Source: a virus (taxonomy: Duplodnaviria; Caudoviricetes). Taken from it: a DNA stretch of 33,189 nt. Both the position numbers and the translations under genes were made by a program. The notes beneath the pieces are model-generated. The model worked only from the letters and a program-made list of their open reading frames with translations, made no database searches and had not been told where the DNA came from. This document shows, in pieces, positions 184 through 17,073 of this stretch. How positions within the stretch are numbered: position 1 is the first letter of the stretch; each line of letters starts with the position of its first letter. The stretch is taken from positions 1-33,189 of IMG/VR virus record IMGVR_UViG_3300032233_001266, one strand, 5' to 3'.

Positions 184-208
184 TAACACTTTCTCTTATT
201 AAAAGATA

Positions 209-409: not shown

Positions 410-414
410 AGACA

Positions 415-963: not shown

Positions 964-1000
964 TTACCTATTTACATCCATTTCCTAACCATCGATCACT

Positions 1001-1294
1001 ATGTTTATCTCCAGAGTTGAAATTAATGGTCAACCCACAACTGCTCGTCAACTTGCCGCAGGTGCTACATCAGCTAATACTGCCTTGACTGCTAGCACTG
1101 ATCGCATAACAATGCGTGCTGTGACTGCTGACATTCGTTATGCAGTAGGTTCTTCAGCACAGACTGCTACAGCCACAAGCCATTTCATTGCTGCTGGTGA
1201 ACGTCTGACTATTCTTGTGCCTTCTGGTGCAAACATTGCTGTCATTCAAGCCGGTGCAAGTGCTGGCACTCTTGAAGTAACAGAGTTCCAATAA
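1001..1294 (+). CDS. Hypothetical Ala/Thr-rich beta-strand protein, possibly virion-associated
   Basis: Clean 97-aa ORF in the late operon. Function inferred from composition only. Confidence 0.6.
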   Translation: MFISRVEINGQPTTARQLAAGATSANTALTASTDRITMRAVTADIRYAVGSSAQTATATSHFIAAGERLTILVPSGANIAVIQAGASAGTLEVTEFQ

Positions 1295-1308
1295 ATTTGG
1301 GACTGAAA

Positions 1309-1554
1309 ATGATTGAAGCAATCTTAACTGGTGTTGTCTCACTAGTCATTGGTGCTAGTGGTGGTATGGCAGCCATCCATTCACGTACCAATCAAAAAGT
1401 GGCTGAGTTAGACAGACGTATTGACCAAATGGAATTACGTGTTGCTGAAAAGTACGTACCACGTAATGAACTATCCAATGCACTCCAGAAGATGGAAGAT
1501 CACATGATCCGCATTGAAAATAAACTCGATCAAATAGCACTTAGAAATGGCTAA
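1309..1554 (+). CDS. Hypothetical protein with N-terminal TM helix and coiled coil
   Basis: ATG at 1309 preferred to TTG at 1297. Hydrophobic AILTGVVSLVIGASGG is followed by heptads. Overlaps the terS start. Confidence 0.65.
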   Translation: MIEAILTGVVSLVIGASGGMAAIHSRTNQKVAELDRRIDQMELRVAEKYVPRNELSNALQKMEDHMIRIENKLDQIALRNG

Positions 1555-1801
1555 GACCAAAGCATCTGAGGATATGTTCAATGAGTTACATAATATTGTG
1601 ACTCAAGAGCTACTAAATCGGATTAAATCCGGTGATGCCTCCACTGCCGATCTAAAAGCAGCTTGTGATTGGCTTGCAAAAAATGATATTAGCGGTGTGG
1701 CGTATGCGGGCAATCCTCTAGATAAGTTAGCCAGCATCATGCCAAAAGTAGATCCCGAACTTGTACAAAAGAGGTTGTATGGCGCAAGGCAAAACCGCTA
1801 A
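1547..1801 (+). CDS. Terminase small subunit (T7 gp18-like)
   Basis: ELHN...ELL-RIKSG-A-TADL-AA--WL--NDI motif, 84 aa, upstream of terL. Confidence 0.85.
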   Translation: MAKTKASEDMFNELHNIVTQELLNRIKSGDASTADLKAACDWLAKNDISGVAYAGNPLDKLASIMPKVDPELVQKRLYGARQNR

Positions 1802-2039
1802 ATTTTACAAAGAGAATCCTGATGCAGCTGCACAACATCGCCGCTATATGCGGAAGTATAACCAGGATCCACTAAAAATTAAATACCGCTCAGAGCTTAA
1901 TAAGGAGCGCCGTAAACGTGGTATGTACGGCAATGGTGGCAATGATCTTTCTCATGATGCTAATGGGAATGTAAAGCCAGAAAATCCCAAAAAGAACCGT
2001 GCTCGTAATGGGCAAGGGGATAACAAGCGGTATCGATGA
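1779..2039 (+). CDS. Small basic HNH-like protein
   Basis: ATG at 1779 with GAGG at 1771-1774. DLSH...N...KNRARNG is a minimal HNH-like motif. Confidence 0.6.
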   Translation: MAQGKTAKFYKENPDAAAQHRRYMRKYNQDPLKIKYRSELNKERRKRGMYGNGGNDLSHDANGNVKPENPKKNRARNGQGDNKRYR

Positions 2040-2365
2040 CTCCCTTACTACCTAGTCCTGATCACTACCTCCAAAACCTAATAACCATGACCAGTCCCGA
2101 AGCTAAGCGGCTGTGGCGTAGAGCCATAAAGGAACACTTTGACTGCACATGTGTCTACTGCGGAGAAACTTATGAATTACATGAACTTACACTTGATCAC
2201 GTTCGCCCTCGTTGTATGGGTGGCGAAGACCTTACAAGCAATTTGGTCCCATCCTGTCGAAAGTGTAATCAGGACAAAGGTAGTAACAATTGGCTTTCAT
2301 GGATGAGGAATACCTTTGGTAATAATCCCCATAGAGAGCATTTAATTCTTTCACATATCAATTAA
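2036..2365 (+). CDS. HNH endonuclease
   Basis: CVYCG...LTLDHVRPRCMGG...NLVPSCRKCNQDKG is a canonical Zn-binding HNH motif. Confidence 0.92.
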   Translation: MTPLLPSPDHYLQNLITMTSPEAKRLWRRAIKEHFDCTCVYCGETYELHELTLDHVRPRCMGGEDLTSNLVPSCRKCNQDKGSNNWLSWMRNTFGNNPHREHLILSHIN

Positions 2366-3181
2366 ATGGCCAAATACAAAAACGTTAAACGAAATGGTCG
2401 GTGGGTCACCGTAAATGAGCAAGGTAAAGAAGTTAATCCTGGTCAAGGAGCACTTCGTGATATTGCTCGTGCCGTTAAGAAAGTAGCTTCTGATGCTGGT
2501 GATCAAGTTGTCTACTCGGATAAAACTGATGCCAAGGGTAACCCGCTGACTATTGGTCAAGTAAAACAGATTGAAGGGAAGAACTACGGCAGACCAAAAC
2601 CTAAGGCTCCCGCTCTTCCTTCTCCAAAGGTTGCTGAGAAGATGAAGCAGGGTGAGACCTTTAAGAACAATAAAGTTCAACCCAAAGTTGAAGATACAAA
2701 ACCTGCACCACAAGCTGAAGCACCTGCTCCCCAGCGTCGTGCTTCTACGGCTGTTGTACGTAATCCGGCACCACAAGCAAAACCCAGTACCCCTTCTAAG
2801 CCTGTTGAGTCGGGCTACAAGGCTGGTGATAAGTATTACAGGGGTTCTGATACATACAAGAAGGCATTGGCAGATAAGAACGGTGGTTCCTCTTCTGGTA
2901 ACCCACTCCTAGACAAGATGCGTCGGGAGATGGGGCTTGATGCTGCAACTGGAGAGAAGTCTTCAGGTCCCAGCATGGATAAGCAGAAAGCTACCGCTGC
3001 AGGAATCATTGCCAGTGGCAAGGTTGAAGCTTTGAAGCCCACTGAAGGGTCTAAGAACTTCAGCAAGGATTCGGGTGTTAAACCAACAGCTCAATCAAAA
3101 GATGCTAACTACTCAGAATCTTTCAAGAAGAAAGAAGATGAGAAAAAGAAAGCACTCATGATTAAAGGCTACAAGAAATAA
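2366..3181 (+). CDS. Hypothetical low-complexity K/P/A/S-rich protein
   Basis: 271-aa ORF starting right after the HNH stop codon. Looks largely disordered. Confidence 0.7.
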   Translation: MAKYKNVKRNGRWVTVNEQGKEVNPGQGALRDIARAVKKVASDAGDQVVYSDKTDAKGNPLTIGQVKQIEGKNYGRPKPKAPALPSPKVAEKMKQGETFKNNKVQPKVEDTKPAPQAEAPAPQRRASTAVVRNPAPQAKPSTPSKPVESGYKAGDKYYRGSDTYKKALADKNGGSSSGNPLLDKMRREMGLDAATGEKSSGPSMDKQKATAAGIIASGKVEALKPTEGSKNFSKDSGVKPTAQSKDANYSESFKKKEDEKKKALMIKGYKK

Positions 3182-3219
3182 GCATTTAGACAACCTGTCC
3201 ACTTGAGTAGTAACTAATC

Positions 3220-3246
3220 GCCGCTCCGCATGGGGCGGCTTTTTTT
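3220..3246 (+). terminator. Intrinsic terminator
   Basis: GCCGCTCC-GCAT-GGGGCGGC stem-loop followed by T7. Confidence 0.8.
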
Positions 3247-3247
3247 A

Positions 3248-4855
3248 ATGCCTAATCAAAACAAACGCTTGATTGAGCAAGCATTATCAGCAACACTATC
3301 TGACGATAGAGGCGCTAATGTAGTGTTCGAAGATTATAAAAGGCTTGGAAAGCTTCCACAAAAATACAAGACCAAGGAAAGTTTTTTAAGTGCTATTAAG
3401 GAAAGGATGGATAGTGGGAAAACCCTCAAAGAGGCTGCAGATTCCCTAGCTAAATTAGATACCTTAGTCAAATCAAAAAAGATTGGCAAAGCTCTTGAAA
3501 CTATTGACGAAGTTAAATACAAAGGCATTCCACTGAAAGTTAATGGTAAAGGTGAGCCTGTATTTGATAAAAGGAAGTTTCATGAAAAGCCACCAGAACG
3601 CTTAAAAGCATGGGTGGATTTTTTAGAGGAGCAAAACAAACTCCCCAAAGGCTTTTATAATGATTTTGAGAAGTGGGCAAAAAAAGGTTGGAATGCTCAC
3701 CTAGAGAAAAATAAAGGGCTGAAAATAAAGACTGGACAGCAGTTTGATAATGGGCATCTTGTGCCATCTGCAATGGGTGGTCCAAATGTTCCATCAAACG
3801 TACGTGCAGAGCGTGCTTTAGGTCCAGGTGGAAACAGATCAAAAGGTCAAACCCCAAACTTTGCAACGCCACAGATTCCAAATGAGTTAGGAATTCCAGA
3901 AAACTGGACTAGGGCATTTTATGAATATGATTTAGATAGGCAAGGTTTTACTGCAACTGGCTTACCAAAAGATACCAGATTATCTTCTGCTGAGCTTGCT
4001 CGTATTGAGCTAGGTACTGATCATAACAAAGTTATTAGTATCAAACAGCAAAAGATTCAGCAGCAGCTAACTAATGCTGCACTTGAAAGCCAAGATCTAC
4101 CAAAATCTCATCAACAAATTCTTGCCAGACTTCAAAATAATGGCAGAAGCTATCAATCAGCTGTTGCTACTGGACTGACAACTCCAAAAGGTGATATTAT
4201 TAGCCTTAAATCTGCTAAAGGTGCAATAAAGCTTGAGGCTGTTGCACAGAGTGAGATTAATGGTACCTATAAACCATTTAGCAATCCACTCTTATCAGGT
4301 AATTCTGAAGCAGCATTCGGTTTAGGTAGTGCCGGTTCTGCAGAAGTTGTCAGTGCTGCTAAAGCACTAAGGAGACCACTTACAACTGGCTTAAAAGCTG
4401 GTTTGGCTGGTTTGGCTGTAGAAGCAGGAGTATCTTATCTCACTACTGGTGACCCATACCAAGCAACAGCTGGCACTTTAAGCTCTCCAATAGATAGCGG
4501 TCCCACCGCAAATGTTGACAGAGTGGGCAATTTATTTGTTGATAGAACCACTAATCAAGTATTACCTTCCACTAAAGCTGAAGCATCCAAAGGTAAAACT
4601 GGCCTGGCCTATCGCAATGGTAAACCCGTAGCGGTTCCATACGGATCAGTTGCTGGAGAGAAGTCAAACCTTGCTTTGTTGCAGGATGAAATGAAAACTG
4701 CTGTTAAAAATGCAAATGACGTTTGGATTGTTAACGGTAGAAACTCAGCAAAAGCAAGAACAAGAGCTGGGTCGTTTGAAGTTGGCTTGGGTTCAATCAA
4801 ATTCAAGCTACCAGAACTAGGTGTTTCTGAATTCCTAAACCTAAACCAGAAATAA
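3248..4855 (+). CDS. Large modular protein with an internal HNH/beta-beta-alpha-Me nuclease motif
   Basis: FDNGHLVPSAMGGPNVPSNVRAE...NRSKG motif and a Gly/Ala-rich C-terminal half. ATG 3248 chosen because ATG 3230 lies inside the terminator hairpin. Confidence 0.65.
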   Translation: MPNQNKRLIEQALSATLSDDRGANVVFEDYKRLGKLPQKYKTKESFLSAIKERMDSGKTLKEAADSLAKLDTLVKSKKIGKALETIDEVKYKGIPLKVNGKGEPVFDKRKFHEKPPERLKAWVDFLEEQNKLPKGFYNDFEKWAKKGWNAHLEKNKGLKIKTGQQFDNGHLVPSAMGGPNVPSNVRAERALGPGGNRSKGQTPNFATPQIPNELGIPENWTRAFYEYDLDRQGFTATGLPKDTRLSSAELARIELGTDHNKVISIKQQKIQQQLTNAALESQDLPKSHQQILARLQNNGRSYQSAVATGLTTPKGDIISLKSAKGAIKLEAVAQSEINGTYKPFSNPLLSGNSEAAFGLGSAGSAEVVSAAKALRRPLTTGLKAGLAGLAVEAGVSYLTTGDPYQATAGTLSSPIDSGPTANVDRVGNLFVDRTTNQVLPSTKAEASKGKTGLAYRNGKPVAVPYGSVAGEKSNLALLQDEMKTAVKNANDVWIVNGRNSAKARTRAGSFEVGLGSIKFKLPELGVSEFLNLNQK

Positions 4856-4856
4856 C

Positions 4857-4890
4857 CCTCTAAGGCCCCTAGAAGCCCCTACAAGCCCCA
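4857..4890 (+). repeat. Three imperfect 10-bp tandem repeats
   Basis: taaggcccct / agaagcccct / acaagcccca, upstream of terL. Confidence 0.6.
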
Positions 4891-4921
4891 TACATATCCA
4901 CTAAGGTATATCCTAATCTAA

Positions 4922-6685
4922 ATGCCACCAAGACGCCGTATAGCACCTTCTGGAGGGGACTCAGTATTAACTGCCCTCCAGGAGGACTTCAAACTATTTC
5001 TTCAAGCCCTTTGGCAACAACTAGACCTACCTTCACCCACCCGTGCTCAATATGCCATCGCAGACTACATCCAACACGGACCAAAACGCCTTCAAATCCA
5101 AGCGTTCCGTGGTGTTGGTAAGTCTTGGATTACTGGGGCTTTTGTTCTCTGGACTCTTTTTAACAACCCAGAAAAGAAAATCATGATCATCTCAGCTTCT
5201 AAGGAACGAGCTGACAACATGTCTATCTTCCTTCAGAAGCTGATCATTGAAACCCCCTGGTTAGCCCACCTAAGACCCAAGAGTGATGAAGCTCGGTGGT
5301 CTCGTATCTCCTTTGACGTGAACTGCTCCCCTCACCAGGCACCTTCCGTCAAATCAGTCGGTATTACCGGTCAGCTCACCGGTTCACGTGCTGACCTCAT
5401 GATTCTCGATGACATCGAAGTTCCTGGTAACTCCATGACCGAGATGATGCGTGAGAAGCTCCTTCAACTCTGTACTGAGGCTGAATCCATCCTTACCCCC
5501 AAGGAAGACTCTCGCATCATGTACCTCGGTACACCACAGACCACCTTCACTGTCTACCGCAAACTCGCAGAACGTAACTACAGACCCTTTGTGTGGCCTG
5601 CACGTTACCCACGTAAGATCTCTGCCTATGAAGGCCTTATAGCCCCTCAACTCCAAGAAGACTTGGATATGGGTGCTGATAGCTGGGCTGTAACCGACCC
5701 CGATCGCTTCTCTAATGATGACCTAACCGAACGGGAAGCTTCCATGGGTCGTAGCAACTTCATGTTGCAATTCATGCTTGATACCAGTCTTAGTGATGCA
5801 GAGAAGTTCCCCCTTAAATTTCAAGACCTCATCATTACCGCTGTTAACCCGACTCAAGCGCCGGATTCTGTGGTGTGGTGCTCTGATCCTCGTAATGTTC
5901 TCAAAGACCTGCCTACGGTTGGCCTCCCAGGCGATTACTTCTATTCACCAATGCAACTCCAAGGTGAATGGGGTACCTATACCGAAACAATCTGCTCCGT
6001 AGATCCCTCAGGTAGAGGCTCAGACGAAACAGCAGCTACATACATAAGCCAACGTAATGGATTCCTCTATGTCCATGAAATACGCGCTTATAGGGATGGC
6101 TATAGCGATAACACTCTCCTTGATATCCTCCGTGGTTGCAAGAAATATAATGTCTCTAAACTCCTCATCGAAACAAACTTTGGTGATGGCATTGTTGGTG
6201 AACTCTTTAAGAAACACCTCCAACAAACTAAACAAAATATCGGTGTCGAAGAAGTCCGTGCCACAGTCCGTAAAGAAGACCGTATCATTGACTCCCTAGA
6301 ACCTGTCATGAACCAACACCGCCTCATCATTGATCGACAGGTGGTGGAATGGGACTATAACTCCAATAAAGATGAAGCCCCAGAGAAACGTCTTCTCTAC
6401 ATGCTCTTCTATCAAATGTCTCGTATGTGTCGTGAGAAATTTGCCATTAAACACGATGACAGATTAGACTCCCTAGCACAAGCTGTTAAATACTTCACAG
6501 ATGCTATGGGTATCTCAGCTCAAGAAGTCGTTAACCAACGCAAACGTGATGAATGGAATGACATGCTCCAAGGTTTCCTAGATGACCCCCAAGCCTCCGC
6601 TAATCACGTTGTTTTTGGCATGAATATGGAACAAAGACAACAGGCTAGAGGGAAGACAACAAACACTGTCCCCACCTGGGTTTAA
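4922..6685 (+). CDS. Terminase large subunit (T7 gp19-like)
   Basis: Walker A AFRGVGKS, GQLTGSRAD, Walker B ILDDIE, LGTPQ, nuclease DPSGRGSDE and HDDRLD. Confidence 0.97.
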   Translation: MPPRRRIAPSGGDSVLTALQEDFKLFLQALWQQLDLPSPTRAQYAIADYIQHGPKRLQIQAFRGVGKSWITGAFVLWTLFNNPEKKIMIISASKERADNMSIFLQKLIIETPWLAHLRPKSDEARWSRISFDVNCSPHQAPSVKSVGITGQLTGSRADLMILDDIEVPGNSMTEMMREKLLQLCTEAESILTPKEDSRIMYLGTPQTTFTVYRKLAERNYRPFVWPARYPRKISAYEGLIAPQLQEDLDMGADSWAVTDPDRFSNDDLTEREASMGRSNFMLQFMLDTSLSDAEKFPLKFQDLIITAVNPTQAPDSVVWCSDPRNVLKDLPTVGLPGDYFYSPMQLQGEWGTYTETICSVDPSGRGSDETAATYISQRNGFLYVHEIRAYRDGYSDNTLLDILRGCKKYNVSKLLIETNFGDGIVGELFKKHLQQTKQNIGVEEVRATVRKEDRIIDSLEPVMNQHRLIIDRQVVEWDYNSNKDEAPEKRLLYMLFYQMSRMCREKFAIKHDDRLDSLAQAVKYFTDAMGISAQEVVNQRKRDEWNDMLQGFLDDPQASANHVVFGMNMEQRQQARGKTTNTVPTWV

Positions 6686-6689
6686 GGCT

Positions 6690-6713
6690 GGTAACGGGCG
6701 TATACAGGGGGAA
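6690..6713 (+). promoter_or_regulatory. Candidate phage RNAP promoter, copy 1
   Basis: GGTAACGGGCGTATACA|GGGGGAA, identical to 13045-13068. A 17-nt upstream part followed by a G-run matches T7 promoter layout. Confidence 0.65.
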
Positions 6714-6740
6714 GAGAGGGTGGACTCAACTCCCTGTAGG

Positions 6741-6768
6741 GGGGAAGACACAAATCTTCCCCTTTATT
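6741..6768 (+). terminator. Hairpin with short T-tract, possible terminator or pause site
   Basis: GGGGAAGA-CACAAA-TCTTCCCC followed by TTTATT. Confidence 0.45.
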
Positions 6769-6915
6769 AATGTCCCTGGGAATGGACATTCTGTAAGAAC
6801 CGCCAAACCCAAAAGACCAATCTTCCACTCACACCTTAAAGAACTGAATTAAGATCATCCCTGTGAGACCCTTTGAGTCACAAGGGATGATACTGATTCA
6901 GTATTATATATCAGC

Positions 6916-7233
6916 ATGGAGTATAAGTACCCTGATAACACACCTTCAACCTACATCTCCTACTTTAGGAACAGAGAAGGTCCTAATGGTATCCTTGTCT
7001 ATTACAAGAATGTAAGCAGATTTGTTACTACCAGTAAACAACTGAGAGATGTCTTTGGTCCTGCACGGTATACAGATAGTGTAAAGCTGGTATCAAAATG
7101 GTGTGATGAGATGATAGAAAAGTATGACTCGGTATCAGCTGATGTGACCCATGATGAGATTGTTAAAGATGGGTTCGGCCCTGAAGCTCATCTAGAAGAA
7201 GATCCAACAGCTAATACTAAGATGGTGATTTGA
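6916..7233 (+). CDS. Hypothetical protein, last late-side gene
   Basis: 105-aa ORF with ordinary globular composition, after terL. Confidence 0.65.
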   Translation: MEYKYPDNTPSTYISYFRNREGPNGILVYYKNVSRFVTTSKQLRDVFGPARYTDSVKLVSKWCDEMIEKYDSVSADVTHDEIVKDGFGPEAHLEEDPTANTKMVI

Positions 7234-7750
7234 ATTAGTTGGTAACAGCTACCTCACAGCAACTGTTGTCAAGGTGCAGCAAATAACCTGCGAATTTTTG
7301 GCAGAAATTTATTTTCCCTAATAAGCGGTACCGCTGGGCCGCACTACCCCCGTGTGGGGGTGCCGGACTTGGTACTAGATGGTATATCTAGTCCAAGATA
7401 CAGGGGTTCGCGGGTTTCAACTACCGCGCGGGGGTGATGTGCGCCTGTTTTCTACGCGGGAGGGGTTAACTCAACCTCAAGCGATCTGTCCCGATTTCAC
7501 TAAGCTTTGCTTATATATCGTGAGCTGATTGATAAGCAAAGATGATCAGTACTGCACTGCAACAGATCTGCTGCCATTGTCATATTTCGTTACACCAAAC
7601 CAGCTCCAACCTGCTACCTTGAGACCTCCTTTCTTCTTGAAGGTTGAGTATCTCGACTCTCCCTGTTAAGGGGGAGGAGAGTCTCGATCCTTCAACCAGA
7701 AGAAAGAGAGAGACCGACCTACCGACCAGCTGTGCCACTTTGCCAGCTGA
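7234..7750. other. Non-coding region probably containing the genome ends / terminal repeat
   Basis: Lies between terL and the first early promoter, where T7-like genomes end. Dense in palindromes. Exact terminal-repeat limits cannot be seen in a single copy. Confidence 0.6.
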
Positions 7751-7754
7751 CCGC

Positions 7755-7783
7755 TTGACATCCTGTCCACCATGGTATAGGAT
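7755..7783 (+). promoter_or_regulatory. Host sigma70-type early promoter
   Basis: Perfect TTGACA (7755-7760), 17-bp spacer, TAGGAT (7778-7783). Confidence 0.75.
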
Positions 7784-7793
7784 GCATAGCATC

Positions 7794-7812
7794 GAACCTC
7801 GACAACTGAATA
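7794..7812 (+). promoter_or_regulatory. boxA-like antitermination element
   Basis: GAACCTCGACAACTGAATA resembles cyanobacterial rrn boxA (GAACCTTGAAAA core) and lies just after the predicted TSS. Confidence 0.5.
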
Positions 7813-8286
7813 CAGGGCTGGTCACAACACGGAACCAGAGGAGCGAGAGATCCCTCGAAGCAGAGACATGGTTGCAACCCAACCAGCTGCTACCAGCCCG
7901 CCACCTGTCCACTTCAGTATGAAGTGATAGCGCAGAGTCACATGCGCTTTATAAGTCTGCTCATGGCAGGCTGACATCCACCGGGGTGCACACCGTTCGA
8001 GTCGGTGACCAGTCATTTGTTTATATCTCAAGAACGCATTCGTTATGCTTTATCAAATTAACTACGGTCCTTCACTTAGGGACTACACTCACGCTAGTGA
8101 GTACATCCATGCTGACACAATCGATCAAGCATGGGCTGAGGCTAGGCGTCGTTGCCTAGCTCGTGAGGTAGTGCAAGAAGTACTGCCTTGCGTACAATTC
8201 AAGTCAGCGTTCGGCTGATGTCTGCTCTCAGGGACGCACCCTGTCAGCAGCCTTCAAGTGCTGCAATCATTCACTCAATTGTTTAT

Positions 8287-8523
8287 ATGTTCACTGTTCC
8301 TTTTCGTTCGTCTTCTTGCATTGAGAAGCTTGAAGTCAACCCCTTCTTTGGTGTTGTCAAGTGTACCTTCAAGGATGGGTACACGTATGAGTATGACAAC
8401 GTTAGTAAGCGAGCGATCCTCAACCTGTTGTTCAATCCCAACATGAGCCTAGGCTTTTGGGTTAACACGAACCTAGTCAACACATCACGAACTGACTATG
8501 CTTGTGTTGATTTCTCGGTCTGA
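8287..8523 (+). CDS. First early protein, KTSC-like small domain
   Basis: ATG 8287. SSCI--L-V...V---FKDG--YEY-NVS...SLGFWVN resembles the KTSC pattern. Confidence 0.65.
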   Translation: MFTVPFRSSSCIEKLEVNPFFGVVKCTFKDGYTYEYDNVSKRAILNLLFNPNMSLGFWVNTNLVNTSRTDYACVDFSV

Positions 8524-8613
8524 TTAGCTGGTCTGATAGTTACACTTAGGGATGGCTAATCACCATCCTTTTCTGTAGCTTTCAAGCTACGTATCCACTT
8601 ACGTATACTGAAC

Positions 8614-9189
8614 ATGACAACCATGATTATCGAGCGCCTGACTGGTCAATCCCTGATTGACTACATCAAGGACGCTACCGATAAGGGACTTAGTAAGTCC
8701 GACATGTGTCTAGGTGCAGGCTATGTGAAGGAGCTACCGTTTGGTGGCACTGGAGCTAGCTTCACCGCCTTCTATGAAGCTTTGTTGGAGGCTAAGGGTG
8801 TTGATGTTGAGGCTGTTGCAGCCGATCAAGCTGAACACTACGTTGACTACAACAAGATGACTGAAGATGAACAGAACTTCTACGATGAGGTGTCTAACCT
8901 CTTTGGTGAGAAGTGGACACATGCACAACAGATGGAGTTCATGGAAGAACTCGACGACCTTGGGATCAAGACAGTCGAGCAGCTCAACGATGCGTACTAT
9001 GGTTGCAACGATGAGTATAACGCTGAGGCATACTTTGCCGAGGATTTCATGATTGAAACCGGTACAATTAGCGAGGACTCACCGTTGTTCTCGTTTATTG
9101 ATTGGCAGCAAGTGTGGGATCATAGCTTCCGCTATGACTTCAACACGGTTGAGTTTGATGGTGAAACGTACTTCTTCCGTAACTCCTGA
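8614..9189 (+). CDS. Acidic early protein: cyAbrB-like N-terminus plus ArdA-like C-terminus
   Basis: N-terminal LTG--L...SKSD----AGYV...FTAFYEALLEAKG. C-terminal YYG...FAEDF...FIDWQQVW...YDF. Strongly D/E-rich. Confidence 0.7.
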   Translation: MTTMIIERLTGQSLIDYIKDATDKGLSKSDMCLGAGYVKELPFGGTGASFTAFYEALLEAKGVDVEAVAADQAEHYVDYNKMTEDEQNFYDEVSNLFGEKWTHAQQMEFMEELDDLGIKTVEQLNDAYYGCNDEYNAEAYFAEDFMIETGTISEDSPLFSFIDWQQVWDHSFRYDFNTVEFDGETYFFRNS

Positions 9190-9273
9190 CTCTCTCACTC
9201 AGCCCATCTATCCACATGGGTATGTTGGGTTTTCTGAGGGACTCACTCCCTTAAGTAACACTAACAAATCACA

Positions 9274-9546
9274 ATGACAATGGAAATCTTTACATTAGCG
9301 AGTGTCTGCGACTGTAGTGGTGACACCGTAATTATTGGTGTATTTGAAAGCATGGACGCAGTCATTGAAAGGTTGCGTTTCATTGGAGCCTATACAGATC
9401 CTGGGGAAGGGTACAAGATTGAGTGTTTCCAGTTGAGTACATTTGAAGAAGAATCAAAACGTACAAAGGAAATGCTTATTACTCGCGCTGAATACAAAGC
9501 AAAACAAGAACGTGATCAAAAGAAATCAGAATCTAGCGAAGCTTGA
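9274..9546 (+). CDS. Hypothetical early protein
   Basis: 90-aa ORF in the early operon. Confidence 0.65.
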   Translation: MTMEIFTLASVCDCSGDTVIIGVFESMDAVIERLRFIGAYTDPGEGYKIECFQLSTFEEESKRTKEMLITRAEYKAKQERDQKKSESSEA

Positions 9547-9639
9547 AGATACAGCTATCGCCGACTATCACAAGGGGTTGCTTACACGTAAGCAGCTCCT
9601 TTCTATTGTTCATAAATTAGACCGCATTAGTTCCACTAA

Positions 9640-9867
9640 ATGACACAAGAACCTAGCAAAGACTGGTTAATTCTGAATGCTATTGAATGTTGGCTATATT
9701 ACTTTCCTGATAACCCATATGCTGAACGTTATAAAGAATTAAAGGATGCAATCGAGTTACAAATGCAAAACCTCGACACCAGAGAAGTGGAAGAGGAAGG
9801 GGAAAGCAAGGCCGCAGGCCGTGCGCCAATCAAAAGAAAGACTCAAACACCTCAAGCTAAAGTATAA
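9640..9867 (+). CDS. Hypothetical early protein
   Basis: 75-aa ORF, tightly packed with its neighbours. Confidence 0.6.
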   Translation: MTQEPSKDWLILNAIECWLYYFPDNPYAERYKELKDAIELQMQNLDTREVEEEGESKAAGRAPIKRKTQTPQAKV

Positions 9868-9869
9868 GA

Positions 9870-10031
9870 ATGATTCACAATCACAGAATTGATGTGTATG
9901 AGGTCACGCTTAGTTCAGGTACTAGATACATCCTAGCGCCCAATTCCGAGCGAGCAGCATGGAATGCATTGGAATTGTCCCATGAACGCAACGATAAACT
10001 TCTCAACGTTAAACTAAAAGATGAGTGGTAA
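9870..10031 (+). CDS. Small hypothetical early protein (53 aa)
   Basis: MIHNHRIDVYEVTLSSGTRYILAPNSERAAWNALELSHERNDKLLNVKLKDEW. Fills the gap exactly and overlaps the next start. Below the ORF-track cutoff. Confidence 0.6.
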   Translation: MIHNHRIDVYEVTLSSGTRYILAPNSERAAWNALELSHERNDKLLNVKLKDEW

Positions 10032-10344
10032 GAAACGCTATTATCCGAATAATTGGCAAGAATACAAGGACTCAGATGATGACATGTTTGAAACCCACAC
10101 GTTTGAAGAGTTAATGATGTGGAAAGTAGGAGGATGGGAGTTACCGTCTTCTGTTGATTGTATCATCAGGGTTTCAGATGTAGCCACAGGTAAGATAAAG
10201 GAGCATGTTTATCAACGTAATAGTGCAGCCAGAAAGAAGGTTGCAGAGTTAATTAAAACACCTGGCATTGAGTTCACGGTATGTGATCACGATGCAATCC
10301 ACCATTTAACGCAAGAGGAAGCAATTAATGAACTCGACTTTTGA
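10021..10344 (+). CDS. Hypothetical early protein
   Basis: 107 aa, YYPNNW...WELPSSV-CIIR...EHVYQ. Confidence 0.7.
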   Translation: MSGKKRYYPNNWQEYKDSDDDMFETHTFEELMMWKVGGWELPSSVDCIIRVSDVATGKIKEHVYQRNSAARKKVAELIKTPGIEFTVCDHDAIHHLTQEEAINELDF

Positions 10345-10453
10345 GCGCAGGTTAGAGCAACTTATGCAAGAGTTACATAATCATGAGCATAAAGAGGAGC
10401 TGCTAAAGCTAGCGATGGAGCAGCTGTACGACGACATGGACACCATTGAATAG
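10328..10453 (+). CDS. Small helical hypothetical protein (41 aa)
   Basis: MNSTFERRLEQLMQELHNHEHKEELLKLAMEQLYDDMDTIE, with GAGG shortly upstream. Confidence 0.55.
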   Translation: MNSTFERRLEQLMQELHNHEHKEELLKLAMEQLYDDMDTIE

Positions 10454-10573
10454 GTGTGCTGCATATAGCTGCGGCTTGTCGTCGTGTAGCCCTTTGAACA
10501 TAGTTAAGCAATGCTTCGGAGTGCAGACAACTGCTGCACGATCTTTAGTATATGTTTATGCAGTAAAGCATTA

Positions 10574-10774
10574 ATGCGTATCTTCTCTTTCGGACCACTG
10601 TACATCGGTACAGATAAGGAATCCTTTTGGGATTTCTGGATAAATAGTACGGATGTATCTATCCACCTTGGTATAATCCGAGTAGAGTTAGATCGGCCAC
10701 ATTTAAGGAACCATGGACCCCTTCAGAAGGGAGCTCACCAACCCAACAATGGAGAGGCTTCTCAAGGCTATTGA
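10574..10774 (+). CDS. Hypothetical protein
   Basis: ATG 10574 within the 10511 ORF. Overlaps the start of the wHTH gene. Confidence 0.45.
   Translation: MRIFSFGPLYIGTDKESFWDFWINSTDVSIHLGIIRVELDRPHLRNHGPLQKGAHQPNNGEASQGY
10669..10677 (+). promoter_or_regulatory. Extended -10 promoter for the regulator-integrase pair
   Basis: TG-G-TATAAT, 35 nt upstream of ATG 10713, which has an AAGGA Shine-Dalgarno. Confidence 0.6.
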
Positions 10775-11069
10775 GTTGCTTCGGGTCTTAGTGGATCGAG
10801 AGATGCCAGCCCAGGCAGTCTCCTGCTTTTTATATGTTGCATCGCATAGTCGTTGCCATAAAACTGCAATGGAGGAGGACTTGGGGTTCACTACTGCCAG
10901 TGGCAGTCGTAACACCGACTGGTTGTCTCAAACCAACCGGCTAGGTCAGCAAGGACTTGGCCTAATTATCAAGGAGGCAGACCCATCTAACAAACGCCGA
11001 GTCATGCTCACTCTCTCACCCAAGGGAGAAGAGATTAGTAAACAACTCGAACGAATTCTCTATGATTAA
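10713..11069 (+). CDS. MarR-like winged-helix transcription regulator
   Basis: HTH (EEDLGFTTASGSRNTDWL) and wing (GLI-KE-DP-NKRR-ML-LS-KG). Directly upstream of the integrase. Confidence 0.85.
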   Translation: MDPFRRELTNPTMERLLKAIELLRVLVDREMPAQAVSCFLYVASHSRCHKTAMEEDLGFTTASGSRNTDWLSQTNRLGQQGLGLIIKEADPSNKRRVMLTLSPKGEEISKQLERILYD

Positions 11070-11961
11070 ACCGAAAAGCATCACCCGTTTTTCACAAGCG
11101 TTTAAGTTTACGCAAGAGTACAAACCTACATGGAGTTGTGGTAGTGCATTCGCAGGTAACTGCGTAAGCAACTACAACCACATCATGACATATGCAGCTG
11201 TTGATCCCAAGTTAGAGACAATCAGCCACAACTGGTTAAAGTCTATCTTGGAGGAATATGCTGATGATCGTGCATCACAAGGTCAAGAAACTTCTAACGC
11301 CACATTAAATCGCCACCTAGCTACGGTTAGGACAGTGATGAAGGTGATGGCAATTGAGGATTACATTGATCGTGTACCTGTCTTCCAACAATGGGAAGAA
11401 AGTGAGGGACGTACTAACTTCTACCGCAAGGAAGAAGTAGATCAACTTATTCACTACTCACTAGAACGTGATGACATTGCGCTAGCTCATACCATCCAAT
11501 TTGCAGCCTATACAGGTCTGCGTCAAGGTGAATTGAGAAAGCTCAGAGTCAGGGACGTGGACTGGAGAGATGACATTATCCACGTAGGTGGCACGCCTGA
11601 GACGCGCACTAAAGCAAAGAACTACAGGGTTGTTGGTATTGCCGACTCACTGAAATCAATGCTAAAGATGCGTACGCAGGGCCGCGATCGAATGGATTAT
11701 GTGTTCGATGAATGGACCAGTGGTCAGCAATTGTACCGGAAGTTTCTGAAGGTACGCAACCGACTCATCCATGAATCGGATTACATCGACGAATCGTATG
11801 TGTTCCACACGCTACGTCACAGCTATGGGACGTGGCAGATACAAGCGGGTACACCGCTAGTAGAAGTGAAGTACGCCATGGGTCACAAGAATGTGAGCAC
11901 CACTGAGCGGTACATCCATAACACATATGGGTCCAAACGTCAAATGGCCAACGCTATCTAG
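11062..11961 (+). CDS. int: Tyrosine integrase
   Basis: YTGLRQGEL (R), TKAK (K), FHTLRH, MGH, TTERY (Y). All catalytic residues present. Confidence 0.95.
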   Translation: MIKPKSITRFSQAFKFTQEYKPTWSCGSAFAGNCVSNYNHIMTYAAVDPKLETISHNWLKSILEEYADDRASQGQETSNATLNRHLATVRTVMKVMAIEDYIDRVPVFQQWEESEGRTNFYRKEEVDQLIHYSLERDDIALAHTIQFAAYTGLRQGELRKLRVRDVDWRDDIIHVGGTPETRTKAKNYRVVGIADSLKSMLKMRTQGRDRMDYVFDEWTSGQQLYRKFLKVRNRLIHESDYIDESYVFHTLRHSYGTWQIQAGTPLVEVKYAMGHKNVSTTERYIHNTYGSKRQMANAI

Positions 11962-12043
11962 TCAACGTCTAGTAGGTCCTGAAAAAGGGGTCAACGGCAC
12001 GCAACCAGGTAAAGTTCTAGTGATCTCGTCGCTGAGATCCCTT

Positions 12044-12085
12044 GGGAGCGTGGCGGAATTGGTAGACGCATTCGACTCAAAATCG
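12044..12085 (+). mobile_element. Putative attP core: 5' half of tRNA-Leu(CAA)
   Basis: GGGAGCGTGGCGGAATTGGTAGACGCATTCGACTCAAAATCG gives the acceptor 5' strand, D-arm and anticodon loop CTCAAAA, with no T-arm or 3' strand. Located just downstream of int. Confidence 0.85.
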
Positions 12086-12114
12086 CAGCCAAATTCTATG
12101 CAGTTTGGTACACG

Positions 12115-12137
12115 AGGGGGAGAGATCCCCCTTTTTT
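12115..12137 (+). terminator. Intrinsic terminator after attP
   Basis: AGGGGGA-GAGA-TCCCCCT followed by a T-run. Confidence 0.7.
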
Positions 12138-12231
12138 ATTGGTATAGCTAGCTATCCACTTGGGTACGCTTTACACGAAATATCTAGCTGCAAAAACGAA
12201 GGTCAATTAACAATTATTCACAATCACGCCT

Positions 12232-14571
12232 ATGAAAGATCCAGCGCTGCTGGCGGAGCAGGTTGCCTTGGAGCGCGACCAGATCAGGCAAGGGCTTGCC
12301 CGGTTACGTGACAACACCAAGAAGCTGGAGGAAAAGGAGTACGCCTCAGCGTCTGTCTATGGGGTGAGCTCGATCGATGCACTACTGCCAAAGGTGGTAG
12401 AGCAGATCACAAAAACCAGAGCCCGGATCAATAAAGGAAAGACCGGCACATCGTTCAAGGAGATCCAGCACTTTTTGGCAGACCTTGAACCACTGGCTGC
12501 AGCTGCCATTGCCTGCAAGCTCACCTTTGACAAAGTGTTTGGGTTTAAGCAGGGCAGCAATCAGCTGGTTTCCGTCTGCGATGCAATTGGCAGTGCCGTA
12601 GAGGCTGAGTGTCAGATGCGTCACTACGAGGCAAAGGCCCCAGGCCTTCTTAACGTACTAAAACAGAACTATTGGCACAAGGCCATCGGCACCCACCAAA
12701 AGAAGGTGGTGATCCAAACCCTGATGAACCGCTATGACGTGGAGGTTTGGAAAGGATGGGGCCGAGCTAATCGGGTCAAGCTTGGTGGTTGGCTGTTGGA
12801 CTGCATCATGCAGACCTCGGGTTGGTTTGAGAAGGAGATCAGGAGGGAAGGAACACGAACAAACAACTTCGTAGTACCAACAGCAGATTTCATAGCCATC
12901 AAGGATCAGGTGATGGCCGATGCTGAGCTGTTTGCTCCACTGACATGGCCAATGCTCGTTGAACCAAACGATTGGACGAACGACACAGCTGGTGGCTACA
13001 TCCTGAACGAAGTCATGAAGGGCCATGACATGGTGCGTCGGGGAGGTAACGGGCGTATACAGGGGGAAACACCGCTGACCTTTTTGAACAAGATTCAGAA
13101 GGTTGCGTACCGCCTGAACCCATTCACTGTTGAAGTGGCTGAAGTGTTGATGGAAAAGGGGATAGCGATTGGTAAATTTGTACCGATCACGGAGATCCCA
13201 CTACCTCCTAAGCCATACGACATTGCTGAGAATGACGAGGCTCGGATGAGCTATCGACGTGCAGCAGCTGAGGTCATGAACAACAATGCCCAGAGCTTCA
13301 AGCGTTCATGTCGTACAAGGATGACGATGGAGGCTGTTGCTCGCTTCAAGAGTAAGGATGAGTTCTACATCCCTTGGTCTTTTGATTATCGGGGTAGAGT
13401 TTATCCAATACCAGCATTCCTAACACCACAAGACACCGATTTTGGTAAGTCCTTACTTAGGTTTGCTGATGAAACACATATCACAAAAGAAGCTGAGGAT
13501 TGGATCGCATTCAGCGTAGCCACCTGCTACGGGCTAGATAAGGAGCCGATGGATGTGCGTCTTGAATGGGTCTTGGATCACCAGCAGTACATCACACAAG
13601 TAGCAACTGACCCACTAGGGAACATGCACTTGTGGGAAGTAGCTGATGAACCTTGGCAATTCCTAGCGGCGTGTGATGAGTACTACCATGTAGTCATTGC
13701 TCGTGATCGAAAGACAACAGGCTTCATGGTTGCTTGTGATGCAACATGTAGTGGTCTTCAGATCCTTGCTGGGTTAGCCCGTGATGCCTCTACAGCAAGC
13801 CTTGTGAACGTCTTGCCTAGCGATAGACCACAAGATGCTTACAAGGTCATTGCTGAGGCTGCTAGGCCCCACTGTCCAAAATCTATCCAGCCTTATATGG
13901 ATAGAAAAACTGTTAAACGTACGGTAATGACCGTACCTTACAACGCCAAACCTTTTTCAAACCGTGCATACATCAAGGAAGCACTGAAGGAGAAAGGAGT
14001 TGAGATTGAGAAGGATGACTTAACAGCTACTGTCAAAGCCGTACGTGATGCCATGAACCGGGTAGTACCTGGGCCTATGGCTGTCATGAAATGGATCGAA
14101 GATGAAGTCAAGCTGGCGATGAAGCGAGGTGTCAGAGAACTTAAGTGGGTTACACCATCAGGTTTTGTGGTCTACCAAAAGCTTCAGAAGAAGTTAGTTG
14201 AAGTAGTAAGTCTTCAGTTGCTTGGACGCTGTGAAGTGCGGGTAGCAACAGATGATACCGATAAGGTTGATGCAAACCGCCATAAGGCAGCTACTGCTCC
14301 AAATCTGATTCACAGTCTTGATGCAAGCTTGTTACATCTAAGCGCAATACGGTTCAATTCACCGATCGCATTGATCCACGACTCAGTGCTGTGCAGAGCT
14401 ACAGACATGTCGATCCTATCCACTATGGTACGGGAAACATACATGTATCTCTTTGCGGAGCATGACTATCTAAAAGACTTTGCCCGCCAGATCGGGGCAG
14501 AGACAGAACCACCGATCATTGGAAACCTTGAACCCAAGTCGGTAATTAATTCCACGTATTTCTTTTGTTAA
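12232..14571 (+). CDS. Single-subunit DNA-directed RNA polymerase (T7 gp1-like)
   Basis: DYRGRVY, DATCSGLQ (motif A), RKTVKRTVMTVPY (motif B), PNLIHSLDA, IHDS (motif C). Confidence 0.98.
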   Translation: MKDPALLAEQVALERDQIRQGLARLRDNTKKLEEKEYASASVYGVSSIDALLPKVVEQITKTRARINKGKTGTSFKEIQHFLADLEPLAAAAIACKLTFDKVFGFKQGSNQLVSVCDAIGSAVEAECQMRHYEAKAPGLLNVLKQNYWHKAIGTHQKKVVIQTLMNRYDVEVWKGWGRANRVKLGGWLLDCIMQTSGWFEKEIRREGTRTNNFVVPTADFIAIKDQVMADAELFAPLTWPMLVEPNDWTNDTAGGYILNEVMKGHDMVRRGGNGRIQGETPLTFLNKIQKVAYRLNPFTVEVAEVLMEKGIAIGKFVPITEIPLPPKPYDIAENDEARMSYRRAAAEVMNNNAQSFKRSCRTRMTMEAVARFKSKDEFYIPWSFDYRGRVYPIPAFLTPQDTDFGKSLLRFADETHITKEAEDWIAFSVATCYGLDKEPMDVRLEWVLDHQQYITQVATDPLGNMHLWEVADEPWQFLAACDEYYHVVIARDRKTTGFMVACDATCSGLQILAGLARDASTASLVNVLPSDRPQDAYKVIAEAARPHCPKSIQPYMDRKTVKRTVMTVPYNAKPFSNRAYIKEALKEKGVEIEKDDLTATVKAVRDAMNRVVPGPMAVMKWIEDEVKLAMKRGVRELKWVTPSGFVVYQKLQKKLVEVVSLQLLGRCEVRVATDDTDKVDANRHKAATAPNLIHSLDASLLHLSAIRFNSPIALIHDSVLCRATDMSILSTMVRETYMYLFAEHDYLKDFARQIGAETEPPIIGNLEPKSVINSTYFFC
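13045..13068 (+). promoter_or_regulatory. Candidate phage RNAP promoter, copy 2 (inside the RNAP gene)
   Basis: Exact 24-nt match to 6690-6713. Encodes GNGRIQGE. Confidence 0.6.
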
Positions 14572-15140
14572 TGGCACAATCCATCCACATTACCCAACAG
14601 CCTGTAGTCCTTGAAGGCTATCAAGCTGTGATGAAACCGAGTAAGTTTGGCTATTCTCTATCTGCAATTGTAGATGCTACGCTAATCGAAACTCTTGAAG
14701 ATGACCGAGTAGAAACCCTGAAGTGGGCAGAATCAAAGCTGAAGAATCCTAAGCGCAGCGTATTGAAGCCAGAGCCTTGGGAAGAAGTGGCAGAGAATCA
14801 ATACAAAGTTAAGTTTAACTGGAATGAAGAAACACGTCCGCCCGTGGTGGATTCAGAAGGTACAGCAATTACCGATGAATCAACTCCGATTTATAGCGGG
14901 TCTAAAGTCAAGCTTGCGTTTCGGCAAAAGCCTTACATCCTCAAAGACGGTGTCACCTATGGCACGAGCCTTAAGCTTGTTGGAGTACAAGTCGTTGCAC
15001 TTAACGGTGCAGCAGGAGTCGACACTGGTGATCTCGATGAAACCGAAGTGGCAGCCCTGTTTGGCCAAACTAAGGGATATAAGTCCAACGATCCCAATGT
15101 AACTCCAAAGGCTGTCGAAGTAGCTGACGACGACTTCTAA
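14571..15140 (+). CDS. ssDNA-binding protein (gp2.5-like)
   Basis: TAATG coupling to RNAP, IYSGSKVKL, SLKLVGVQV, acidic tail ending DDDF. Confidence 0.9.
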   Translation: MAQSIHITQQPVVLEGYQAVMKPSKFGYSLSAIVDATLIETLEDDRVETLKWAESKLKNPKRSVLKPEPWEEVAENQYKVKFNWNEETRPPVVDSEGTAITDESTPIYSGSKVKLAFRQKPYILKDGVTYGTSLKLVGVQVVALNGAAGVDTGDLDETEVAALFGQTKGYKSNDPNVTPKAVEVADDDF

Positions 15141-15493
15141 TGAAGTTCCGCTCAGGATTGGAAGAGAAGGTTGCTGATCTTCTCTCCAACCTTGGTGTTG
15201 AGTACGAATATGAATCTACAAAAGTTCCTTACGTGTTGCGATGCAATTATACGCCTGACTTTTTACTTCTTAACGGCATTTATCTTGAGACCAAAGGTCT
15301 TTTTGATGCTGAGGATCGTAGAAAGATGCTGGCTGTAAAAGCTGATAACCCAGAGCTAGACATACGATTTGTATTTCAATCGCCCTATAACAAAATCAGC
15401 AAGGGATCCAAGACCACCTACGCCAAGTGGTGTGAGAAAAATGGGTTCAAATGGACCTCATACACGAATATACCTATTGACTGGCTCACATGA
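15140..15493 (+). CDS. Endonuclease I / Holliday junction resolvase (gp3-like)
   Basis: FRSGLE, YTPDF, ETKG, LDIRFVFQ, TTYAKWC. Confidence 0.95.
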   Translation: MKFRSGLEEKVADLLSNLGVEYEYESTKVPYVLRCNYTPDFLLLNGIYLETKGLFDAEDRRKMLAVKADNPELDIRFVFQSPYNKISKGSKTTYAKWCEKNGFKWTSYTNIPIDWLT

Positions 15494-17073
15494 GCGAGAG
15501 CGAATTCGTAAGGCATGAGCCATGCGCTAGCTGTGGATCATCAGATGCAAATAGCTTGTATTCCGATGGCCACAGCTTTTGTTTTGCATGTCTTACATGG
15601 CTCCCGGGAGAGGGAGAAATTGTTCACAATCACAAAAGAATGACCAACAGTGTCTACTTACAAGGCTCAGCCGGACGGCTGCAGAAACGAAACATCAGTG
15701 AAAAAGTCTGTCAAAAATATAAAATCTACAAAGACGGAGACCTTCTACGGTTCTATTATTTCGACGATGCTGGAATCGTTCGGGGTTGCAAAGTAAAGAC
15801 AAAAGAAAAAGACTTTAGCTATGAAGGAGAAGTACCCGGAACCCTCTTTGGGCAACATTTGTTTCCCTCCACTGGAAAACGAGTTGTCATTACAGAGGGG
15901 GAACTCGATGCAGCTTCATGTCAAGAAGCTATGCCGGGGTGGCCGATGGTTTCTTTACCTAGCGGTGCCGCATCGGCAAGAAAGGCGATCCAAAGGGCTA
16001 TCCCATGGCTACAGGGCTATGAAAGCATTGTCTTGTTCTTCGACAACGACGAGGCTGGCCGTAAGGCAACGACGGAAGCGGCTGGGGTCTTACCACCTGG
16101 CAAGGTGTCGATCGCTCAAATTGTTGAGCCATACAAGGATGCAAGCGATGCGCTTCAAGCCAATGACGCTGAAGCAATTAGGAGAGCTATTTGGGATGCC
16201 ACCCCATACAGGCCGGATGGCATCGTTGACGCAAAGACTCTTCTCGAAGTAGTAACAACACCTAGTCCACCACATGATCACGAATACCCCTTCAAAGGGT
16301 TACAAGAAAAGCTCAAAGGTATCCGTTATGGAGAGCTCACCTGCATTACCGCAGGATCTGGAATCGGAAAAAGTTCATTCTGCAGAGAACTTGCAACTCA
16401 CCTACTCAACAACGGGGAACGAGTTGGATACTTGGCTTTGGAGGAAAGTAACAGACGAACAGCCTTAGGGCTGATGTCTGCAGCAGTAGGAAAATCATTA
16501 CACATTGGAGAACATGACCGATCTACCCTCACCGAGGCTTATCAAAAGTCTCTTGCTAATTGGAACTTGTTTCTTTTTGATGGGTTTGGGTCTTATGATC
16601 CAGATCTCATCTACAACAGAATTGAGTACCTGGCAACAGGTCTTGATACGAGGATCATATTTCTAGATCACCTATCCATTCTATTGAGTGGTCTTGATGG
16701 CGATGAACGTCGCATGATCGACACCACAATGACCAAACTTCGCTCATTGGTTGAGCGCACAGGGATTGCCATGTTCTTGGTATCCCACTTACGTCGTACT
16801 ACTAGCACTGATAAAAATCATGAAGAGGGAGCAAGAGTCACCCTTGGACAACTACGTGGTTCTGCAGCAATTGCGCAACTGTCAGATGGAGTTATTGCAC
16901 TTGAACGGGATCAGCAGTCGAATGGAGGCAACTCTAGAACGACTGTACGAGTCCTTAAAAACAGATACAGCGGAGAGACTGGCGTAGCTTGCCATCTTGA
17001 TTACGACCTAGATACATGTAAGTTCAATGAAACAGAACCAGAATCAGAATTCGACGCAAGTAACGATTTCTAA
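15490..17073 (+). CDS. Primase/helicase (gp4-like)
   Basis: Cys4 Zn finger, TOPRIM (EGELD, FDND), Walker A AGSGIGKS, LRGS, KNRYSGETG. Confidence 0.97.
   Translation: MSESEFVRHEPCASCGSSDANSLYSDGHSFCFACLTWLPGEGEIVHNHKRMTNSVYLQGSAGRLQKRNISEKVCQKYKIYKDGDLLRFYYFDDAGIVRGCKVKTKEKDFSYEGEVPGTLFGQHLFPSTGKRVVITEGELDAASCQEAMPGWPMVSLPSGAASARKAIQRAIPWLQGYESIVLFFDNDEAGRKATTEAAGVLPPGKVSIAQIVEPYKDASDALQANDAEAIRRAIWDATPYRPDGIVDAKTLLEVVTTPSPPHDHEYPFKGLQEKLKGIRYGELTCITAGSGIGKSSFCRELATHLLNNGERVGYLALEESNRRTALGLMSAAVGKSLHIGEHDRSTLTEAYQKSLANWNLFLFDGFGSYDPDLIYNRIEYLATGLDTRIIFLDHLSILLSGLDGDERRMIDTTMTKLRSLVERTGIAMFLVSHLRRTTSTDKNHEEGARVTLGQLRGSAAIAQLSDGVIALERDQQSNGGNSRTTVRVLKNRYSGETGVACHLDYDLDTCKFNETEPESEFDASNDF

Follow-up and report, generated by a model that had tools for sequence, protein, structure and literature searches.

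A dispersed and oriented 18-bp dyad in a T7-like cyanophage is most likely the operator of its MarR-type regulator

The sequence analyzed here, a window of 33,189 nucleotides that constitutes positions 1 to 33,189 of the virus record IMGVR_UViG_3300032233_001266, comes from a T7-like cyanophage that carries marR, int and attP as one module. All of its genes lie on the + strand, in the order terminase, early genes, regulator, integrase, RNA polymerase (RNAP), replication genes, hli, psbA, capsid and tail. The window is 33 kb long, compared with about 45 kb in relatives, so that some of the late region is apparently missing. The subject of this study is a bipartite motif, TRTCCAC-N4-GTA, for which a preliminary description had proposed two alternative roles, namely operator sites of a phage regulator or a distinct class of promoters. 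From the comparisons reported below, its copies most likely make up the operator regulon of the MarR-type protein encoded directly before the integrase. The coordinates of all features are collected in Table 1.

A scan of the whole window found nine exact copies of the motif, at the positions previously described, all of them on the + strand; there are none on the - strand and none past position 14430. In shuffled sequences, 0.11 copies are expected over both strands; the maximum was 2, and none of 100 shuffles reached nine. A position-weight matrix trained without the window and without phage P-SSP7 returned the same nine sites, at 14.8-23.4 bits, and no others of at least 12 bits in the 33 kb. 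The near match reported at 7975 did not hold up, as it carries two mismatches and scores below 10 bits; the sites with a single mismatch are at 11577 and 21299 on the + strand, and at 29527 and 26350 on the - strand. Because the late region is apparently incomplete, the statement that the motif occurs nowhere else is valid for the window only. Similarly, because all genes in the window are on the + strand, the strand bias does not tell whether the copies are oriented relative to the genes or relative to the genome. Seven copies are intergenic with respect to credible genes, in agreement with the original count of intergenic copies; the exceptions are the copy at 10660, within a small open reading frame (ORF), and that at 14417, within the RNAP gene. 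An unguided search for spaced words in each locus yielded mostly codon-bias noise, and ranked the motif first only in the window, in loci L008 and L119, in two loci of the S-TIP37 type, and in little else.

The shape of the site was derived from 64 non-coding sites in the window and its relatives. With the flanking positions included, the motif becomes CTRTCC-N6-GTAYAG, an imperfect palindrome of 18 bp, in which the positions outside the initial pattern mirror the left arm, with a pyrimidine in 58 of the 64 sites, an A in 46 and a G in 26. Five of the six arm pairs are complementary in the consensus; the dyad is perfect in phages of the S-TIP37 type and near-perfect at the host loci described below. 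The site is nonetheless asymmetric, since the C/T combination at the fifth position of the arms is found 91 times on the + strand versus 13 times on the - strand, and 90 of 115 TRTCC words continue with AC. Counts of the perfect palindrome RTCC-N6-GGAY (86 in 457 kb versus 9 in 150 kb) were set aside, as they include coding artefacts such as the peptide H-P-H-K-D-E. It had also been noted that in four copies the final TA opens a -10-like hexamer. The four hexamers are indeed present, but their register is not special: TAnnnT occurs at the final TA in 18 of the 64 sites, which is about chance given the fixed TA, and two bases later in 12. Clear overlap with a canonical promoter is seen only for the copy at 7764, which, as described, sits in the spacer of a TTGACA promoter.

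The predicted binder is 53-58% identical to the gp0.7/MarR proteins of P-SSP7, S-TIP37, S-CBP1 and S-CBP3. The P-SSP7 protein (pMarR; PSSP7_011, gp0.7), at 53% identity, is likewise encoded before int. Although a Pfam search gave no match for the window protein, its structure model has a pLDDT (predicted local distance difference test score) of 90, and its best Foldseek matches are MarR, PcaV, MexR and SlyA. P-SSP7 pMarR is reported to be a DNA-binding dimer in which S66, R67 and G106 are needed for Ca2+-stimulated binding, DNA binding and dimerisation, respectively (PMC9692554). These three residues are kept in the window protein, and are invariant columns in the alignment. By analogy with this homologue, the window protein would also be a dimer.

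Related loci were gathered by similarity to the RNAP and to the MarR protein, and supplemented with named phage genomes. For the motif count, 102 of 161 loci were kept after 59 near-duplicates were dropped; 25 of the 102 are too short upstream to be classified, and contain two exact matches. In the 457 kb of the 56 loci with a marR gene (MarR+), including the nine copies in the window, there are 92 exact copies of the motif on the + strand and 5 on the - strand. By comparison, the 150 kb of 18 loci without marR (MarR-), whose RNAPs are equally close, contain a single copy. The complete genomes of S-SBP1 and S-RIP1, which lack marR, contain no exact match. In the held-out genome of P-SSP7, the matrix recognizes 8 sites, all on the + strand. 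They lie ahead of terL, marR and the RNAP gene, within the RNAP gene, and in the early region; positions 293, 1818, 4487 and 5979 of P-SSP7 are examples. The position before terL is matched also in P-SSP2 and in S-TIP37-type phages, and the RNAP-internal site recurs in 27 of 58 MarR+ loci, in 1 of 21 MarR- loci and in none of 4 in a third set. A tree of the RNAPs was built from 84 of 121 rows, after 37 near-duplicates were dropped, and without the RNAP-internal site. Among these loci, a site upstream of the RNAP gene is found in 50 of 63 that are MarR+ and in 0 of 21 that are MarR-, and the trait changes 7 times on the tree.

The sequence of the site also varies with the recognition helix of the regulator, in three classes. 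The helix of the window protein is TTASGSRNTD. Where the helix is TSN[CS]SRAAD, as in the S-TIP37 type, the motif is absent, and CTGTGC-N6-GCACAG is found at the matching positions; where it is SNAAGSRNTD, as in P-SSP2, a TATACAC variant occupies six matching places, all on the + strand. Two loci, L049 and L013, encode RNAPs that are 92% identical and MarR proteins that are 43% identical, and their sites differ. Their integrases differ as much (43% identity), so this pair excludes the RNAP as the determinant of the site, but not the integrase. The copies that lie in coding sequence follow the same division. GTG and GGC codons are used in five of five S-TIP37-type loci, while the 49 other loci have ATC or GTC in 39 and GGT in 33. 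These synonymous codons therefore follow the type of site, which suggests selection at the DNA level in the coding copies.

A dyad of nearly the same sequence is found at marR genes of host chromosomes. The MarR profile matches 34 of 161 genomes of the genus Prochlorococcus, and 30 of 35 host matches were fetched (L185-L214). In 26 of these 30 loci, TCC-N6-GGA lies 41-57 bp before the aligned marR start, against a background of 5 occurrences in the remaining 96 kb. The flanks of these loci are only 46-62% alike in six sampled pairs. None of the 30 loci has an integrase or RNAP match within about 1.5 kb. Thus, a dyad at host marR genes without phage machinery nearby ties the dyad to the MarR gene. 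Cross-talk between the host MarR protein and the phage operator is possible on this evidence. Given the co-occurrence, the covariation with the helix and the dyad at the host genes, the proposal that the motif is the operator of the MarR-like protein beside int is well supported by these comparisons, and it is very likely that the dimer binds the site.

The proposal of a distinct promoter class fared worse. In its most specific form, the motif would be the promoter of the phage's own RNAP, with T7-like geometry, i.e., CAC at -7 to -5 and G at +1. The spacing CAC-N4-G does resemble that of T7-type promoters (T7 promoter as given in PMC10134795 and PMC6834552), the copies are oriented on a single strand, and one of them precedes the gene for the single-stranded DNA-binding protein (SSB). 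This explanation is exceedingly improbable, however, for MarR-less phages lack the motif although their RNAPs are just as close and share the LQLLGRC loop; the motif also differs between phages whose RNAPs are 92% identical, has no copy before the structural genes, and has a close dyad at host genes. In addition, the window contains a separate element in two copies, an exact 24-nt repeat, that is a better candidate. The RNAP of phage Syn5 has two promoters per genome, one of them inside the RNAP gene (PMC3950665, PMC6834552). We mapped the Syn5 promoters to 4929 (codon 272 being at 4924) and to 44797, 6 nt after the terminase gene, and the pair at 6690 and 13045 in the window lies at the same two places. 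Among the 46 loci that hold both the terL end and the RNAP region, the best match of the RNAP-internal 24-mer falls at most 110 nt after terL in 44 (28 MarR+ and 16 MarR-); the exceptions are L010, where it is further downstream, and L099. The 24-mer varies between phages, while both copies are alike within each phage, and it differs from the published promoter predictions for P-SSP7 and S-CBP1. The motif and the Syn5 promoters differ in position as well as in distribution. With the 24-nt pair at the promoter positions of Syn5, a promoter role for the motif is thus very unlikely, and its -10 register is at chance. For each clade-B cyanophage, the two-copy element provides a prediction of the promoter used by its RNAP; from the alignment to Syn5, initiation at the copy inside the RNAP gene of the window is predicted near 13059.

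A third explanation is that the integrase uses the copies as arm-type sites, or that they are bound by the small protein encoded immediately upstream of, and overlapping, marR. Integrase arm-type sites are asymmetric, and so is the motif. Both the integrase and the small ORF accompany MarR, the ORF being present in 51 of 63 MarR+ and 0 of 21 MarR- loci, and the integrases differ between site types (43% identity). Yet the sites are spread over 11 kb, at promoters and not around attP; the dyad is found at host loci with no integrase match nearby; and Syn5 has a distant integrase, no MarR match and no cluster of sites. The four TCTAG words around the candidate attP (11957, 11968, 12016 and 12183) offer a separate set of possible arm sites. 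We regard this explanation as improbable. The small protein, with the pattern ..LYIG.D..SF....IHLG..R.E.., is unannotated in S-CBP1 and S-TIP37; it could be a recombination directionality factor or an anti-repressor. A TCTAGCG-like word is kept in relatives, behind the RNAP-proximal site.

It is likewise quite improbable that the motif acts as RNA, through a hairpin or processing, or is recognized by a host protein, for instance DnaA or an alternative sigma factor. Its left half is similar to a DnaA box, and the copy at 9209 sits atop a stable hairpin (z -3.45), with some others folding weakly. By contrast, a transcript begun at the predicted start would not contain the copy at 7764, which lies upstream of it; the copies at 4895, 7906 and 12153 fold weakly; and if a host factor bound it, the site would neither track the helix of the phage MarR protein nor disappear along with the gene of that protein. 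The hairpin at 9184-9250, which carries the operator at its apex and has similar flanks in relatives, may be a processing site of the RNase III type.

We therefore return to the MarR-type regulator. It is likely that the 18-bp dyads are binding sites of the phage's own MarR dimer, and that through them it would repress transcription by the host polymerase of the early region, the marR-int operon and the RNAP gene. If the protein is bound, repression is rather probable as its main effect, the alternative being activation or mixed action. Repression is favored because one site fills the canonical spacer of the early promoter, because several have a start codon only 22-28 nt downstream, and because the host sites are in an autoregulatory position. 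In the proposed mechanism, the early promoter would fire through the host polymerase at phage entry, and MarR would be produced at the end of the early operon. The protein would then occupy the spacer of the early promoter and the site behind the attP terminator. Early genes would be damped and the RNAP gated, and the two-promoter late programme would depend on that RNAP. Upon integration at attP, the RNAP site would come to lie at the edge of the prophage. This mechanism leaves the sites before terL and before the ORF that follows 3196 without account. A switch between lysis and lysogeny, as initially suggested, is possible.

The sign of regulation could also be the opposite. With the same protein and the same sites, MarR might mainly activate weak promoters (RNAP, SSB, terL) via the host RNAP's alpha subunit, in an early-to-middle timing switch with repression at most at the early promoter. 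In favor of activation, pMarR has been reported to raise reporter output and to bind RNAP alpha (PMC9692554), a terminator-like hairpin lies between int and the RNAP gene, and a good -35 element is missing at most sites. Also in keeping with it, S-TIP37 is described as forming no stable lysogens (PMC8776855), and an asymmetric, oriented site would fit contact with RNAP. Conversely, the sites 22-28 nt before start codons are too near for an upstream activator, another fills a canonical 17-bp spacer, and MarR-less relatives run their early genes straight into RNAP with no need for such a factor. We consider activation as the principal effect possible but on balance unlikely, a judgement that concerns the sign of regulation only.

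Several results weigh against an operator regulon of this kind. The sole published in vitro target of pMarR, the Pi+ fragment of the host rne promoter, which it binds with an affinity of 320 nM in the presence of Ca2+, contains no motif site (best score 0.6 bits, read from L176), which counts against the operator reading unless binding there was to non-cognate DNA; on rne, pMarR gave ladder-like shifts, multiple footprints and no consensus site, and it acted as an activator of that promoter, binding RNAP alpha in pull-down and two-hybrid assays and raising reporter output (PMC9692554). The primer table of the same paper lists two P-SSP7 fragments for electrophoretic mobility shift assays, and we found no results with phage DNA in its text. 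Among the relatives, 13 of the 63 MarR+ loci have no site by strict patterns. A MarR+ group with an NKA/GKA helix (L155, L159, L162) has almost no site upstream of the RNAP gene, even with a relaxed matrix; these phages may have lost the regulon, or may rely on a different sequence. The early regions of four distant phages with MarR proteins of differing helices (S-SRP01, S-TIP28, S-CBP2 and HTVC019P) show no cluster and no clear dyad of their own. S-CBP4, which is MarR-, has two exact matches, which read as coding sequence. A sign test on well-supported branches of the RNAP tree has four independent pairs, none discordant, with p = 0.125, i.e., not significant alone. No -35/-10 geometry is common to most of the 64 non-coding sites. 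MarR and the integrase are co-inherited in these clade-B phages, such that only the host loci and the positions of the sites separate them. Lastly, the 26 host loci are related to one another and are not independent events, and four of the 30 are exceptions, two with variant sites 138-225 bp upstream, one with a variant dyad and one with none.

Table 1. Features of the window, with scores of the predicted operators from the held-out matrix
Feature	Position	Strand	Remarks
Predicted operator 1	3195..3212	+	14.8 bits; after gene end, directly before terminator-like hairpin (3220-3239) and ORF
Predicted operator 2	4894..4911	+	23.4 bits; 27 nt 5' of terL
Terminase large subunit (terL)	4922..6685	+	PHROG 38, PF22530
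Predicted phage-RNAP promoter, after terL	6690..6713	+	24 nt, identical to 13045-13068
Sigma70-type early promoter candidate, TTGACA-17-TAGGAT	7755..7783	+	best + strand match in scan of 1-16000
Predicted operator 3	7763..7780	+	20.9 bits; over spacer and first half of early-promoter -10 hexamer
Predicted operator 4	7905..7922	+	17.7 bits; in early leader
Predicted operator 5	8591..8608	+	22.2 bits; 22 nt 5' of ArdA-like gene
ArdA-like gene	8614-9189	+	ArdA-like part matched in Pfam/PHROG search
Predicted operator 6	9208..9225	+	20.4 bits; apex of predicted RNA hairpin
Small conserved ORF	10574..10774	+	contains predicted operator 7; confined to marR-int module
Predicted operator 7	10659..10676	+	21.4 bits; 53 nt 5' of marR, within small ORF
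MarR-fold winged-helix regulator, predicted binder	10713..11069	+	PHROG 9665; recognition helix TTASGSRNTD
Tyrosine integrase	11062..11961	+	PF00589, PHROG 1
Candidate attP, tRNA 5' half-like stretch	12044..12085	+	common to unrelated contigs
Terminator-like hairpin, attP/RNAP interval	12114..12134	+	sequence scan
Predicted operator 8	12152..12169	+	20.6 bits; terminator/RNAP interval, 79 nt 5' of RNAP start codon
T7-like single-subunit RNAP	12232..14571	+	73% identical to S-CBP1
Predicted phage-RNAP promoter, inside RNAP gene (codon 272)	13045..13068	+	Syn5 promoter position
Predicted operator 9	14416..14433	+	19.7 bits; in RNAP 3' end, 148 nt 5' of SSB

Of the gene labels in the preliminary description, the ArdA-like part of the product of 8614-9189 was recovered, while its AbrB part and the HNH label of ORF 3230-4855 found no match in Pfam or PHROG. 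In the ESM Atlas both ORFs gave sub-threshold leads only, that of 3230-4855 being weakly HNH-like. The first ATG of the latter ORF falls in the loop of the terminator-like hairpin at 3220-3239, and its true start is more likely at 3251. The leader of the early region (7955-8010) forms small hairpins with a GTTCGAGTC loop, and similar loops are found in the leader of P-SSP7. The DNA polymerase (17100-18889) is divided between two overlapping ORFs, one for the exonuclease and one for the polymerase, an arrangement annotated likewise in P-SSP7, S-TIP37 and S-SBP1. Rfam gave no match anywhere in the window, and ARAGORN found no whole tRNA at the candidate attP. The attP sites of these T7-like cyanophages are described as matching tRNA-Leu (PMC8776855), and by analogy the candidate attP of the window may be assigned to the same tRNA.

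The one recognizable transcription factor of T7-like cyanophages has so far been studied on a host gene (PMC9692554). The predicted operators mapped here in P-SSP7, S-CBP1, P-SSP2 and S-TIP37, together with the correspondence between helix and site, make the role of this regulator in the phage testable, and tractable systems exist in the form of purified protein for P-SSP7 and genetics for S-TIP37. In a literature search largely without subscription papers, we found no paper that gives a cyanophage operator sequence. For T7-like cyanophages, Shitrit et al. describe transient integration only, with no stable lysogens (as in S-TIP37) and no repressor homologues found, and marR is not among the deletions in the passage on their deletion table (PMC8776855). 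A broader reading, which we put forward as doubtful, is that pMarR is the repressor that T7-like cyanophages are reported to lack, that the helix variants are immunity groups, and that the host MarR homologue reads nearly the same operator. If so, a host could silence the early and RNAP promoters of an incoming phage without a prophage, and the site variants of S-TIP37 and P-SSP2 would be escape or exclusion types. The near-identical operator at host genes in any case raises the question of cross-regulation between phage and host.

Among known systems, the closest likeness is to P-SSP7, which has the same layout of sites as the window; the published role of its pMarR differs, being on the host rne promoter, where the high-affinity fragment lacks the motif (PMC9692554). 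The marR-int operon before the RNAP gene is shared with temperate T7-like phages (PMC10134795), for which repression of RNAP by MarR via sites flanking its promoter has been hypothesised (Boeckman 2022, cited in PMC10134795; LUZ100). Compared with that module, the window has nine sites that extend from before terL into the RNAP gene, variants specific to the helix, and a counterpart in the host. With the MarR/SlyA family, in which repression is the usual outcome (PMC9692554), the phage protein shares a dimeric winged-helix fold and a palindromic site beside the regulator's own gene. In contrast to the operators of that family, the phage site is asymmetric and oriented, and occurs as many sites in one direction with no divergent promoter; the phage protein also has no known ligand.

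Finally, the arrangement resembles immunity of the lambda CI type, in that a repressor is linked to an integrase, operators lie over early promoters, and variants could constitute immunity groups. Unlike lambda CI, the phage regulator has a MarR fold, and there is no divergent promoter pair.

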